Source: a virus
Taxonomy: Duplodnaviria; Heunggongvirae; Uroviricota; Caudoviricetes
Reading direction: 5' to 3' (one strand)
Length of the DNA: 36,117 nt
Virus record (IMG/VR): IMGVR_UViG_2563366924_000002
Span: 1 to 36,117 of that record
In this document: piece by piece, positions 472 through 9,210 of the stretch
How the letters are laid out: each line of letters opens with the position of its first letter
How positions within the stretch are numbered: position 1 is the stretch's first letter
Position numbers and translations under genes: made by a program
Notes under the pieces: model-generated
What the model saw: the letters and a program-made list of their open reading frames with translations, nothing else
Told to the model about the DNA's origin: nothing
The model's database searches: none

Positions 472-551
472 ATCTCACCTCAAATAATTCAGTGCAGTGT
501 TTATTCTGTTGTTTATGCCAAAAGAAGGCCGACTATGCGGCATAATTATTT

Positions 552-740
552 TTAACTATCATCAATACATGGCACTTTATTCCAGTCGATATCGTTTTTA
601 TTGTCGTCCCACATGTCTTTGTTTTTGTATTTCTCGCTACATCCTAGGCAAATGTTGTATGGCCTACCGATAAGGTTTAACGAAATACGTTGCATTTCAT
701 TTGATTCAAACATGTATCCACAGAACTGACATTTATGCAT
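552..740 (-). CDS. Small zinc-ribbon-like protein (62 aa, CxxC...CxxC), in the position lambda uses for ral
   Basis: Two Cys pairs (CQFC, CLGC); AT-rich; follows N on the same strand; weak hairpin plus T-run after its stop. Confidence 0.5.
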   Translation of the reverse strand: MHKCQFCGYMFESNEMQRISLNLIGRPYNICLGCSEKYKNKDMWDDNKNDIDWNKVPCIDDS

Positions 741-799
741 ATCTCACCCCTCATACAGTAGCTTACTGCCTAATTTCATTTTCTGGCGACCAACACAAG

Positions 800-1183
800 T
801 CACCTCGCCGTCAGTTGTTTTGATTTCCGGTAGCCTGCCGCGTAAATGGCTACGTTTGGAAGACATACACCAGTTTCTGGTTGCTTATGTCCAAACTCAT
901 TCGCGTACACAATGGCCGCTCGCTCCAGATTGCGTCTGTATTCTTTCTGTTGCCAGATCACGTCCTGTGCCATGAACTTAATTGGCTTAGCGTCTTCTAT
1001 GCGCTCAGGCGTTTCGTGAGTACCTTTAGCCTGAATCTGCGCTCTGCTTAGAGTAGGGCGGTGTAATACTTCTGAACTTATTGCTTCTTCGCGGGCCAGT
1101 ACGCCGTTAGCTAATGCCTTTGCCTTTAAACGCTCACGACGACGAGAACGTGAATTGCCTTTGAACTGAGTTCTGCGTGTCAT
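800..1183 (-). CDS. N: Antitermination protein N (P22 gp24-like)
   Basis: N-terminal arginine-rich motif RSRRRERLKAKALANG resembling lambda N RRRERRAEKQAQWKAAN; C-terminus YAAGYRKSKQLTAR resembling P22 gp24; GGAGG ribosome-binding site; sits downstream of nutL and OL/PL. Confidence 0.8.
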   Translation of the reverse strand: MTRRTQFKGNSRSRRRERLKAKALANGVLAREEAISSEVLHRPTLSRAQIQAKGTHETPERIEDAKPIKFMAQDVIWQQKEYRRNLERAAIVYANEFGHKQPETGVCLPNVAIYAAGYRKSKQLTAR

Positions 1184-1200
1184 ATAGACCTCCTGATGAA

Positions 1201-1430
1201 CTTTGGTGGTGTGGTGGCTGGTAGTCTAGCTCCAGCTTGTTGAGTCTCATTCGGAGGGGTATAACCGGCACCCCAGTGATTTTTCCATGCGACAACGTGC
1301 GCGTTATGGCGGCCTTATCGCCCGCGGCTCCCCATCTCGTCCACGCTATTGCTAGCGTTGGGAGCGCTTCACCGCTCAACAGTAGGTAAGCACTTGCCAG
1401 TGACTAGCTGGCTTCACCACACCCCAAAGT
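1201..1430 (-). promoter_or_regulatory. N leader RNA with long-range inverted repeat enclosing about 200 nt immediately upstream of the N ribosome-binding site
   Basis: Plus 1201-1216 ctttggtggtgtggtg is near-perfect reverse complement of plus 1415-1429 caccacaccccaaag. Confidence 0.45.
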
Positions 1431-1444
1431 TCACTTTGGTTATT

Positions 1445-1459
1445 GCGCTTTGTCAGCGC
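1445..1459 (-). promoter_or_regulatory. nutL boxB hairpin (P22 type, GCGCUGACAAAGCGC on the transcribed strand)
   Basis: Plus gcgctttgtcagcgc; reverse complement matches the P22 boxB as I recall it; located between PL and N. Confidence 0.6.
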
Positions 1460-1517
1460 CGTAGATTCATATTCGAATCGTTGTATATTCACCGCCCTGG
1501 TGAGTAGTGCGTCCTGC

Positions 1518-1620
1518 TGATGGGCAAACTTTATCGGAATGATAAATTAATGGCAATAGCAAAATGATAAATTCTTTTGATTTTCAAATATCGTATTGAT
1601 TCTTATGGTGTTTTATTTTG
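1518..1620 (-). promoter_or_regulatory. OL/PL region: leftward early promoter with repeated TGATAAAT operator half-sites
   Basis: Minus-strand TTGCCA, 17 nt, TAAAGT; repeated atgataaatt motifs at about 1539-1585, shared with the OR region. Confidence 0.5.
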
Positions 1621-1737: not shown

Positions 1738-1766
1738 GGATCGAGAGGCAAAGAAAACCCGGCGCT
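1738..1766 (-). terminator. Rho-independent terminator ending the cI operon (minus strand)
   Basis: Hairpin cccggc/gccggg (1748-1765) followed on the minus strand by TTTTCTTT; about 25 nt after the stop of the 118-aa gene. Confidence 0.6.
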
Positions 1767-1787
1767 GAGGCCGGGTTGTGTAGATTC

Positions 1788-2144
1788 TTAGTGAGGTAGT
1801 GATGGCATCATTTTTATTATTAACCCAACACCAGTTCCAACGGCTGCAAGAACTGAACCAATAATAGCCATGGCTTGGAGTCTCATTGCGCTGTGAAGTT
1901 CTGCTTTTGCATTAGCTATGTCTGTTTTAACAGATTCTACATTGGCAGATGTTGCATAGTTAGACTTAATTACAGCGATGTCGGTCGCCATGGTTGCGAC
2001 TTTATCTTCAAGAATTTTTATGCGCTGTAACATGTCACCACCTCCACCGTTACCACCACCATATGTCTCATCATTATGGTGGTTATGTGGAAAATTATCA
2101 ACTTTACTCCTGTCAAGAGGCACAGCGTACAGATGTCGTTTCAT
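1788..2144 (-). CDS. Small membrane protein (118 aa): His/Gly-rich N-terminus, coiled-coil-like middle, single C-terminal TM helix (XhlA-like architecture); second gene of the cI-linked cassette
   Basis: Hydrophobic stretch AMAIIGSVLAAVGTGVGLII near the C-terminus; GGGNGGGGD; start overlaps upstream stop by ATGA; AT-rich. Confidence 0.6.
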   Translation of the reverse strand: MKRHLYAVPLDRSKVDNFPHNHHNDETYGGGNGGGGDMLQRIKILEDKVATMATDIAVIKSNYATSANVESVKTDIANAKAELHSAMRLQAMAIIGSVLAAVGTGVGLIIKMMPSLPH

Positions 2145-2581
2145 TCCTTATCTCTGTTCGGGGTGGTTGAAATAAGAGCGCATTTTTTTTCATCAATAAC
2201 TTCGCTAAGATTACCATCAATGTCTTCAAAGATGCGATAAATTATGTCATATGTTCCTGTTTCTATAAGTTTGATGTTTTTAACGAAAAGATATGTGCCA
2301 ACCACAACATATTTTTCATTGACAGGAGAAAACATAAATGTTTGCAGTTGCTCTTGATTGCTAGAGATATCAGGTAAAACCGATTCTCCATTGAATACGA
2401 CATCAAGTTCGGTAGTGTATTTTTTTTCGTGCTCGAAGTACATTATTGCAGTTAGGTAAAATGAGCCGGAACAAGGGTATTCTTCCGACACTATTATAGG
2501 ATCTGGTGTCATAAAAGGAGTGATTGCCAGCCCGGGTTTTACCGCCGTTGTGTAGATTGTTATTATTTTTTCTTCTCTCAT
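2141..2581 (-). CDS. Hypothetical soluble protein (146 aa); first gene downstream of cI (rexA position)
   Basis: AAGGAAA ribosome-binding site; 69-bp gap after the cI stop; AT-rich; no motif recognised. Confidence 0.6.
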   Translation of the reverse strand: MREEKIITIYTTAVKPGLAITPFMTPDPIIVSEEYPCSGSFYLTAIMYFEHEKKYTTELDVVFNGESVLPDISSNQEQLQTFMFSPVNEKYVVVGTYLFVKNIKLIETGTYDIIYRIFEDIDGNLSEVIDEKKCALISTTPNRDKE

Positions 2582-2650: not shown

Positions 2651-3355
2651 TCACGAACTTTTCAGCCACTCCCTTGCCTCGATGTCATCCAGATGGCGAG
2701 ATTGCTTCAGAATACCAGCCACATACTCCACCTTTGCTACTTGATGATAAGGCAACGTTATTGGCCTGTGGTCTTGGTTGATGCTTGTAAATTGGTATTC
2801 TCCATCTCTGTCATAGCCAAGAACCTTAATCATGTTGTGTCCTTCAACGGTTCTGACAAACACCTCATCACCAGGGAATACTTTGGTGTTAGGCTCAATG
2901 AGTACATATTCTCCTGATTTTATTCTAGGCCACATGCTGTCTCCTTTCACACGAAGGCCAAAGGCATCTGGATCATCGCTATAAATTTTGAGCCACCCAT
3001 CGCGCTCTTCGGTCATCTCGATGGCACCATCAACACCAAGAATTGCCTCACCAACCACGCGCACTAACCCTTTTCTTACCTGACCGACAAAAGTTAAAGA
3101 ATCTGAGCATGATGCAATTGGTGTTACATCATGTACCAAATCAAGCCACCCATTAGGTAACCCAAGTGCGGCTTCAAATTTTCTTGCTAGTTTATCCCCT
3201 ATGTTTCGAGTGCTTTTTTCACCGGAGACTTGCGTGAGTTGAGAAGGGCTAACCCCAAGCTTATCGGCAAAGCTTGCATTAGTGTTACCCGCGATTTTTT
3301 TATGCTCATCTAGCAAAAACGCCAGATTCGATTTGCGAATATCTTTGTTTTCCAT
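2651..3355 (-). CDS. cI: CI-type prophage repressor (N-terminal HTH, C-terminal S24 LexA-like peptidase domain)
   Basis: HTH segment LGVSPSQLTQ; peptidase motif VKGDSMWPRIKSGEYVLIEP; divergent from the cro-like gene across an operator region. Confidence 0.9.
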   Translation of the reverse strand: MENKDIRKSNLAFLLDEHKKIAGNTNASFADKLGVSPSQLTQVSGEKSTRNIGDKLARKFEAALGLPNGWLDLVHDVTPIASCSDSLTFVGQVRKGLVRVVGEAILGVDGAIEMTEERDGWLKIYSDDPDAFGLRVKGDSMWPRIKSGEYVLIEPNTKVFPGDEVFVRTVEGHNMIKVLGYDRDGEYQFTSINQDHRPITLPYHQVAKVEYVAGILKQSRHLDDIEAREWLKSS

Positions 3356-8818: not shown

Positions 8819-9210
8819 AAACCTACCGAATAAAATTGCCGTGGCCTCCTTCAAACAACCGATATTGGCGACACTCAAGAGGGATCCACTACATCAGCGA
8901 CTGGGGGAAGAGATACCGAAAAGAAGTAATCGAAATAATCCAGCAACAACAGCTAGACATCAAAATCACACCTCGCATCAGAATAACCATCCACGCAGCA
9001 CCTCCCGATAACCGCAAACGAGATTTGGACAATCTGCCCAAAGCCGTTTTTGACGCACTCACCAGTGCGGGCTTCTGGCTGGATGACGGTCAGATAGACG
9101 ATATGCGCATCAAGCGCTATCAGGCGATTAAAGGTGGAATGCTTGTGTTGGTTGTGACTGAAACATGCGGGAGTTTGCCAATGATTACAGAGCTACTGGA
9201 GGCCGCATGA
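8815..9210 (+). CDS. rusA: RusA Holliday-junction resolvase
   Basis: Acidic motif NRKRDLDNLPKAVFDALT typical of RusA; about 130 aa. Confidence 0.85.
   Translation: MKTYRIKLPWPPSNNRYWRHSRGIHYISDWGKRYRKEVIEIIQQQQLDIKITPRIRITIHAAPPDNRKRDLDNLPKAVFDALTSAGFWLDDGQIDDMRIKRYQAIKGGMLVLVVTETCGSLPMITELLEAA

Follow-up and report, generated by a model that had tools for sequence, protein, structure and literature searches.

In bacteriophage lambda, the N leader comprises NUTL, an RNase III-sensitive hairpin, and the N ribosome-binding site, in this order. The hairpin was reportedly described by Steege et al. in 1987, Kameyama et al. in 1991, and Wilson et al. in 1997 and 2002, and the succession of NUTL, hairpin, and ribosome-binding site is said to have been given in the study of 2002. 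A 'reducer' stem-loop was reportedly found in the nut spacer of H-19B by Neely and Friedman in 2000, and lambda boxC is a sequence which we take to be GGUGUGUG. The lambda N-leader hairpin and its control of N translation are partly confirmed by PMC5725501, and the lambda nut sites have been described as boxA, boxB, and boxC (PMC2724277). In the rrn operons of E. coli, boxC (UCUGUGUGGG) forms the 5' strand of the leader-trailer helix, the stalk at which RNase III processes 16S rRNA (PMC10250234).

The window analyzed here, i.e. the whole stretch of 36,117 nt, is a lambdoid prophage according to its ORF list and Pfam matches. Its pL leader was aligned with those of lambda, HK544, and 933W, and the features of the region are collected in Table 1. 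The pL transcript probably starts at A1521, since the lambda pL transcript begins with the same sequence, AUCAGCAGGACGC; this start would give an N leader of approximately 338 nt. The initial 110 nt of the leader were approximately 97-98% identical to those of 933W and H-19B, including the annotated nutL of 933W, and the three nutL hairpins were all present in the MFE structure of the nascent leader. The aligned initial 33 nt of the N coding region were those of the annotated N gene of 933W. The short spacer dyad of nutL corresponds to the 'reducer' of H-19B, a stem-loop that shares its leader and phage group with the helix described below but differs in being short and local, situated between boxA and boxB, and in acting in antitermination.

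Table 1. Features of the pL region, the N leader, and the neighboring genes in the window.
Feature	Position	Strand	Basis or detail
cI repressor, LexA-type	2651..3355	minus	Peptidase_S24
Two small ORFs (118 and 146 aa), rex position		minus	without Pfam match
Terminator-like hairpin	1777..1756	minus	terminator scan
pL promoter-like site	1528..1556	minus	-35 TTGCCA 1556..1551, 17-nt spacer, -10 TAAAGT 1533..1528; consensus scan
nutL region, 933W/H-19B type	1445..1502	minus	~97% identity to annotated nutL of 933W and 27deltatox
nutL hairpin 1, CACC-AGGGC-GGUG	1502..1490	minus	
nutL short spacer dyad, GAUUC-GAAUAU-GAAUC	1479..1464	minus	
boxB, GCGCU-GACAA-AGCGC	1459..1445	minus	
R1, upstream CCAAAG copy	1434..1439	minus	pairs with CUUUGG 1429..1424 over UGAA loop
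5' arm, UGAA-CUUUGG-GGUGUGGUG	1415..1433	minus	R2 = 1429..1424; upper strand = 1423..1415
Variable interior, 198 nt, type B cassette	1217..1414	minus	BLAST and E. coli genome survey
Type B first hairpin, GCCAG-CUAGUCA-CUGGC	1412..1396	minus	
Type B last hairpin, GCUGG-AGCUAGACUA-CCAGC	1236..1217	minus	
3' arm, CACCACACC-A-CCAAAG-UUCA	1197..1216	minus	upper strand 1216..1208; bulged A 1207
3' arm, lower parts		minus	R3 CCAAAG 1206..1201; outer extension 1200..1197
N Shine-Dalgarno, AGGAGG	1189..1194	minus	read from sequence; 2 nt (UC) past helix
N AUG	1183..1181	minus	
N antiterminator gene, 127 aa, 933W/H-19B type	800..1183	minus	Pfam N_peptide PF25694, 57.5 bits

The first-pass annotation had noted that the plus-strand segments 1201-1216 (ctttggtggtgtggtg) and 1415-1429 (caccacaccccaaag) form an inverted repeat and that, on the leftward transcript, the 3' arm ends just 5' of the N Shine-Dalgarno sequence. 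Both statements held when the sequence was re-read, with the base of the helix lying 2 nt from AGGAGG. The repeat search returned the arms 1203-1216/1415-1428 and 1197-1206/1424-1433, which merge into a single helix on the minus strand and exceed the earlier version of the repeat by 4 bp. In this helix, 5' UGAACUUUGGGGUGUGGUG (1433..1415) pairs with CACCACACC-A-CCAAAGUUCA (1216..1197) through 19 Watson-Crick pairs with one bulged A (1207), and 198 nt separate the arms. When positions 1100-1800 were shuffled 200 times with dinucleotides preserved, the longest inverted repeat, one bulge being allowed, measured 8-13 bp, compared with the 19 bp observed. Folding, which had been proposed as a check together with a comparison of related phages, was carried out on the 351-nt leader and the 241-nt element, and the long-range helix was kept in both the MFE and the centroid structures. 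The z-score of the 241-nt element was -5.4, none of 200 shuffles being equally stable, and the duplex energy of the helix was -33.4 kcal/mol. The folds show a stable duplex, approximately two helical turns in length, and the covariation described below indicates that selection acts on it at the RNA level. An intrinsic terminator or attenuator was rejected: there is no U tract, the helix is followed by UCAGGAGG, and the terminator scan gave sites only at 1777..1756 and 881..869. A search of Rfam with the whole window at gathering score and with positions 1100-1800 at E up to 10 yielded only a terminator-like chance match.

On the pL transcript, the helix is flanked by the boxB of nutL and the N Shine-Dalgarno sequence, and its arms match those of lambda (CUUUGGGGUGUG...CACACC-A-CCAAAG; CUUUGGGGUGUG...CACACCACCAAAG), which occupy the same place. 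The lambda leader, in which CUUUGGGGUGUGUG...CACACACC-A-CCAAAG stands between boxB and the N Shine-Dalgarno sequence, folds with the same closing helix. The same arms were found at 74 loci and occur at the equivalent place in 933W, HK544, H-19B, phi80, and P22, each with its own upper stem. Judged from these shared arms, their position, and the closing helix, the repeat of the window is a homologue, and not a mere analogue, of the base of the lambda N-leader hairpin. The first-pass annotation had proposed a lambda-like control element by analogy; the identity of arms and position, together with compensatory changes across lambdoid pL leaders, supports this proposal and carries it beyond analogy. 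The two leaders are alike in the order of pL, nutL boxA/boxB, hairpin, and N Shine-Dalgarno sequence, in the bulged A followed by CCAAAG, and in an upstream CAAAG copy, which lambda also possesses. They differ in the interior (198 nt in the window versus approximately 90 nt in lambda, with unrelated sequences), in the upper stem (GGUGUGGUG versus GGUGUGUG), and in the distance from the helix to the Shine-Dalgarno sequence (2 nt versus 7 nt); moreover, the nutL and N of the window are of the 933W/H-19B type, unlike those of lambda.

The pL leaders in which conservation of the helix was examined were collected from IMG/VR through their conserved transcript start CATCAGCAGGACGC, so that the arms played no part in the sampling. 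Nearly all leaders with a boxA-like sequence had a long helix ending just 5' of the Shine-Dalgarno sequence of the first gene, and the leaders of P22, phi80, and H-19B also carried it. An ungapped alignment of 45 distinct stems was used for the covariation analysis; 85.5% of its cells were paired, in stems that came from MFE folds and were thereby biased toward pairing, and 18 of the 24 pairs varied on both sides. There were 173 compensatory cells, compared with 52 +/- 6 in column shuffles (0/500), and the covariation score of 0.484 fell to 0.07-0.11 when the partner strand was slid by 1-3 columns. Despite the bias of the MFE folds, the many pair types per column are hard to explain otherwise. 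Upper stems that differ wholly in sequence were nevertheless complementary, as in GGUGUGG/CCACACC, ACUGGCG/CGCCAGU (P22), GAUUGGAUG/CAUCCAAUC, GCAAGAG/CUCUUGC, and GAUGUGG/CCACAUC (phi80), and the outer extension co-varied with the type of the first gene (UGAA/UUCA, GAGAUGGG/CCAUUUC, and GUUGG/CCAAU). By comparison, the lower UUUGG/CCAAA, the single bulged purine (A in 36 stems, G in 9), and the CC after the bulge were invariant or nearly so: CC was present in 45/45 stems and CCA in 37/45, while the first upper pair was G-C in 42 stems and A-U in 3. The invariant purine bulge and CC are not a known requirement of RNase III, which counts against the lambda-like reading given below. The strict helix-plus-purine-bulge motif was found in 83/97 leaders, but also in 35/97 shuffled leaders; the motif alone is therefore too permissive, and only its position beside the Shine-Dalgarno sequence is telling, the helix ending 6-11 nt before a Shine-Dalgarno-like sequence in 70 of the 83 leaders that fit. 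On the transcript strand, G.U pairs outnumbered A.C pairs (65 versus 39), which is weak evidence for the functional strand. Covariation within the interior class of the window, referred to as type B, was uninformative, since no copy falls below 97.8% identity.

The CUUUGG of the 5' arm (R2) has a second possible partner besides the CCAAAG of the 3' arm (R3), namely the upstream copy R1. The R1:R2 local hairpin (-4.8 kcal/mol) was present in the MFE structure of the nascent transcript and cannot coexist with the lower pairs of the long-range helix, for which it is a competitor. Complementarity between R1 and R2 was 6/6 in all but two of 20 leader classes, the exceptions being the L378 class (5/6) and phi80 (4/6). 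Where R2 varied, R1 was fully compensated in two classes (CCGAAG/CUUCGG and CCAAAC/GUUUGG) and partly compensated in the L378 class (CCACA/UGUGG within CCACAU/CUGUGG, 5/6), whereas R3 was not compensated in any of these; in one further class, the 3' arm has CCUAAG, which no longer matches CUUUGG fully, and R1 retains its perfect complementarity. The outer extension, which is also the loop of the local hairpin, co-varied with the 3' flank. Thus, the lower 6 bp were compensated better in the local hairpin than in the long-range helix, and the full-length duplex may accordingly be transient or conditional; since the loop and the 3' flank co-vary as well, both conformations appear to be under selection. 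These results suggest that R2 switches, pairing with R1 at first and, subsequently or under certain conditions, with the 3' arm beside the ribosome-binding site, and the N/Nus complex at boxB could bias its choice of partner.

The interior enclosed by the arms is highly variable. Twenty-five interior classes were distinguished among 79 distinct leaders, ranging from 4 to approximately 200 nt with type B as the longest, and the distance from upper stem to upper stem was 48 to 217 nt in the clustered leaders. BLAST analysis divided the leader of the window into modules: its initial 110 nt (pL start, nutL, and 5' arm) and its final 17 nt match 933W-type phages, whereas the 229 nt from arm to arm match HK544, HK633, mEp043, and others at 99.6%, phages whose nutL and N are of the lambda type. 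In a three-way alignment, the arms were common to the window, HK544, and 933W, but the flanks were not, nor was the 933W interior. The type B interior was at least 99% identical in HK544, HK633, HK446, mEp043, mEp213, Sf6, Sf101, and others, and it was detected in 19 phage records and in 60 of 5426 complete E. coli genomes (69 places), always in a pL/N leader, with a median of one copy per genome having it; the BLAST match mostly stopped exactly at the arms. No similarity was detected between type B and the other interiors, and a contig scan with the type B core GGTGCCGGTTATACCCC gave 29 chance matches in unrelated taxa, none of them enterobacterial. The interior classes assorted independently of the nutL and N types. 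Type B was paired with four different N-termini, lambda-type N with five interior classes, and the nutL/N type of the window with three interiors (those of H-19B and 933W, and type B). Read by eye, natural minimal leaders had an interior consisting of a tetraloop (L328) or a 6-nt loop (L297). Since natural interiors can shrink to this extent, we conclude that conservation and function center on the helix and that its core function does not need the interior. In the window, the 198 nt between the arms are most likely an insert that can be dispensed with and that is exchanged horizontally; from the near-identity of type B, we conclude that phages have exchanged it recently. Elements of this kind are classic, and the present one, which joins a 198-nt interior to a leader of the 933W type, is a new member.

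Taken by analogy with lambda, the element is probably an RNase III-sensitive leader hairpin that sets the translation of N and is coupled to nutL. Transcription from pL would yield nutL and then the 5' arm, which would initially be held in the weak local hairpin with the upstream CCAAAG copy, if folding follows the order of synthesis. Approximately 200 nt further on, the 3' arm would emerge and the 19-bp helix would form (approximately -33 kcal/mol), its base next to the Shine-Dalgarno sequence. The duplex beside the ribosome-binding site, together with the N/Nus complex at nutL, would be expected to limit N translation as in lambda, and a cut by RNase III in the duplex should then abolish this structure and separate nutL from the N message. 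Such a cut would raise N synthesis and tie it to the cellular level of RNase III. The H-19B-type N presumably has a reduced requirement for Nus factors, and N-mediated autorepression may therefore not work as it does in lambda.

The 5' arm was also compared with the rrn leader-trailer helix. Its upper strand (1423..1415) is GU-rich and resembles boxC. In both systems, a boxA/boxB signal is followed by a GU-rich boxC-like strand (GGUGUGG in the window versus UCUGUGUGGG in rrn), and pairing of this strand with a distant trailer gives a duplex of RNase III size around a folded RNA. In each, the 5' strand may be kept close to the RNA exit channel by the antitermination complex until its 3' partner has been transcribed. 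The two differ in that the family of the window encloses a variable RNA of 4-200 nt instead of a ribosomal RNA, in the order of the boxes (boxA-boxB-boxC versus boxB-boxA-boxC in rrn), and in the position of the trailer, which in the window adjoins the ribosome-binding site, so that the outcome would be translational control.

The invariant purine and CC raise an alternative in which the arms are a tRNA-like signal, cut at G+1 by RNase P or other tRNA enzymes instead of, or besides, RNase III. The upper stem and bulge of the window form an acceptor-type end (GGUGUGG/CCACACC-A-CCA, 1423..1417 and 1214..1204), in which G1423 would be +1, A1207 the discriminator, and 1206..1204 the CCA. The local CCAAAG/CUUUGG hairpin would free the 3' ACCA, and the cut would sever nutL and release a stable RNA; this hairpin is both conserved and compensated, as described above, and the bulge is always a purine followed by CC. 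E. coli RNase P is known to cut substrates consisting of a hairpin plus RCCA, including the phage RNAs phi80 M3, P1/P7 C4, and P4 CI (PMC5499578, PMC11143913). These substrates, like pre-4.5S RNA and pre-tmRNA, share with the window a +1/72 G-C pair, an unpaired purine, and CCA; unlike them, the window has its CCA paired with the 5' leader in the long-range form and lacks a T-loop. The clearest case is the relative L352, whose whole hairpin scored 37.1 bits on the Rfam tRNA model RF00005 (gathering 29, E = 1.5e-6) and was called a tRNA by ARAGORN, with the family arms as its acceptor stem, the third G of CUUUGG|GG as +1, and the bulge as position 73. Canonical T-arms (GGUUCRANUCC) adjoin the 3' arm in three more leaders of two interior classes (L141; L146/L308), one of which gave a weak tmRNA-like match (E = 0.18). 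The window itself received no tRNA or tmRNA call from Rfam (gathering score or E up to 10) or ARAGORN, nor did ARAGORN report anything for 13 related loci. The interiors of lambda, 933W, and type B have no T-loop, the stem measures 9-11 bp in most classes and not 7, and, as minimal leaders have a mere tetraloop, no tRNA body is required. Furthermore, the three-way constraint among R1, R2, and R3 alone can explain the frozen CUUUGG/CCAAAG, and lambda genetics implicate RNase III. We therefore regard processing by tRNA enzymes as unlikely and treat the tRNA-likeness as a lead, not as a classification.

It is also quite improbable, in our assessment, that the arms serve as a processing and recombination cassette from which the interiors are cut out of the pL transcript to act in trans as early-expressed, non-coding small RNAs, among them the 198-nt RNA of the window. 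Such a role would fit the 25 unrelated classes held within the same arms independently of nutL and N type, as well as the conservation of type B and the ending of its matches at the arms, although recent horizontal spread explains the identity of type B equally well. The loops of the first and last type B hairpins are complementary (UAGUC/GACUA) and remain so in the most diverged copy (L180). An abundant 96-nt RNA of P22, P22B, described as lying '16 bp upstream of gene 24' (PMC13397905), maps to the interior and 3' arm of the homologous hairpin of P22; its ends, however, are unlike a staggered RNase III cut, and it could be a decay intermediate. Folded alone, the interior was no more stable than shuffles (z = -0.32). 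K-mer enrichment over the 25 classes revealed no common motif except UGAA(U)G at the 5' edge, where UGAA comes directly after the seventh pair of the upper stem across classes; GAUAAG, which seemed recurrent by eye, was present in only 3 classes. The interiors have no Rfam match, and their natural shrinkage to 4-6 nt also argues against a cargo. A purely DNA-level explanation, with the arms as recombination junctions of mosaic modules or as MITE-like terminal inverted repeats without RNA function, accounts for the module boundaries at the arms and for the reassortment of interior, nutL, and N types. It is very improbable, because compensatory double changes keep the arms complementary even where their sequence changes completely, the flanks UGAA/UUCA are complementary and not direct repeats, and the element never occurs outside pL leaders. 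The arms may have a secondary role as recombination homology.

Several known kinds of element were rejected as well. A MITE or other transposable element was excluded, as no target site is duplicated and every one of the 69 E. coli places and 19 phage records is a pL/N leader. A retron msr/msd has no adjacent reverse transcriptase here, the neighbors being N, the 118- and 146-aa ORFs, and cI; the first-pass annotation was right to dismiss it on this ground. The prophage anti-sRNAs of Tree et al. 2014 are located at pR', outside the N leader.

A broader reading, which joins several of these observations and which we consider doubtful, is that the pL-leader hairpins, including that of lambda, are tRNA-acceptor mimics in a three-way switch and that their interiors are excised as stable early RNAs. 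The switch would consist of R2 and the two CCAAAG copies that can pair with it, R1 upstream and R3 downstream. In one state, the full-length duplex beside the Shine-Dalgarno sequence would be a substrate of RNase III, with translation held down; in the other, the leader would be in the local hairpin and the free 3' RCCA would make a substrate of the RNase P type. The excised interiors, including the 198-nt cassette, would then have class-specific functions.

The lambda-like leader hairpin remains the preferred reading. None of the records examined carries an annotation of the element, and Rfam has no family for it; a family model would therefore improve prophage annotation. Older lambda literature aside, no earlier description was seen of the competing hairpin of the upstream CCAAAG copy or of the acceptor-like reading of the upper stem and bulge; with the same reservation, the cassette behavior, the competing upstream hairpin, the purine-CC signature, and the occasional tRNA form may be new. 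N is the first gene transcribed from pL and gates all delayed-early expression, including, in Stx-type phages, the route to the toxin. A conserved RNA device that made N synthesis depend on the level of RNase III, and through it on the physiology of the host, would affect both induction and the choice between lysis and lysogeny in a large group of prophages of E. coli, Shigella, and Salmonella. If the three-way switch were true, the long-unexplained boxC of the nut sites would gain a role parallel to that of boxC in the rrn leader-trailer helix. In summary, the comparative picture of one helix with a purine bulge, a competing hairpin, more than 20 swappable interiors, and an occasional true tRNA shape opens cheap and concrete experiments on a classic system and suggests a function for the nut-site boxC.

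In the 198-nt interior of the window's leader hairpin, the loops of the first and last hairpins share a 5-nt complementarity, UAGUC/GACUA, for which a rough estimate of the chance expectation is about 2%. Both segments were unchanged in the most diverged copy of this interior (L180) despite other substitutions in those loops, and the two loops could form a kissing interaction. In the predicted fold of the nascent leader, the 5'-proximal CACUAC near +13 pairs with GUGUGG of the GU-rich upper 5' arm. On this model, CACUAC is a possible additional, temporary partner of the boxC-like strand until the 3' arm is transcribed.

Features of the window and of related phage leaders
Feature	Sequence	Position	Strand	Remark
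Complementary loops, first and last interior hairpins	window	1396-1412 and 1217-1236	minus	
Nascent-leader fold	window	1405-1521	minus	z = -4.4
Two ORFs in the rex position	window	1788-2581	minus	cI to pL interval
62-aa ORF	window	552-740	minus	downstream of N
L352 hairpin	IMG/VR contig, lambdoid phage pL leader	681-768		nutL on one side, first pL gene on the other
L328 and L297 hairpins	IMG/VR pL leaders			minimal forms occurring naturally
P22 hairpin homologue (L279)	AF217253	~650..520	minus	gene-24 leader
phi80 family hairpin (L381)	JX871397	~8975..8830	minus	N leader
H-19B hairpin (L382)	AF034975	598-700		pL leader

The L328 version of the hairpin reads CUUUGG-GAUAUC-UGAG-GAUAUC-G-CCAAAG, and that of L297 has an upper stem of 5 bp and a loop of 6 nt. 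In both, a CCAAAG copy is still present upstream, the bulged purine is kept, and a Shine-Dalgarno sequence adjoins the hairpin. The L352 hairpin was recognized by ARAGORN as a 70-nt tRNA-Leu (anticodon tag) and scored 37.1 bits against the Rfam tRNA model (threshold 29). The anticodon arm is shortened, and the acceptor stem exactly matches the conserved arms of the hairpin family.

The P22 homologue reads UUUGG-ACUGGCG...CGCCAGU-A-CCAAA, and its interior and 3' arm were matched by the recently published 96-nt sncRNA P22B, for which the authors' sole description is "16 bp upstream of gene 24" (PMC13397905). The phi80 hairpin combines an interior of the 933W type with the arms GAUGUGG/CCACAUC-G-CCAAAG. 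M3 RNA, one of the classic RNase P substrates other than tRNA, comes from phi80 (PMC5499578, PMC11143913).

Of the two ORFs in the rex position, one encodes 146 aa. The product of the other, 118 aa long, contains a segment rich in glycine and has a hydrophobic C-terminus. A terminator-like hairpin (1777..1756, minus strand) follows the two ORFs. Neither ORF had a match in Pfam, and the pair may constitute a prophage-expressed exclusion or defence module. The 62-aa ORF, which likewise had no Pfam match, carries two CxxC pairs (CQFCG...CLGC) and from its sequence looks like a zinc ribbon.

The experimentally studied phage H-19B has the same nutL and N as the window, but its hairpin contains a third interior for this nutL/N combination, with about 70 nt separating the strands of the upper stem. 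That stem is GGUGAAUGCAG/CUGUAUUCACC, and the bulged base is G. Accordingly, the published work on H-19B nut and N was carried out with a leader hairpin other than that of the window.
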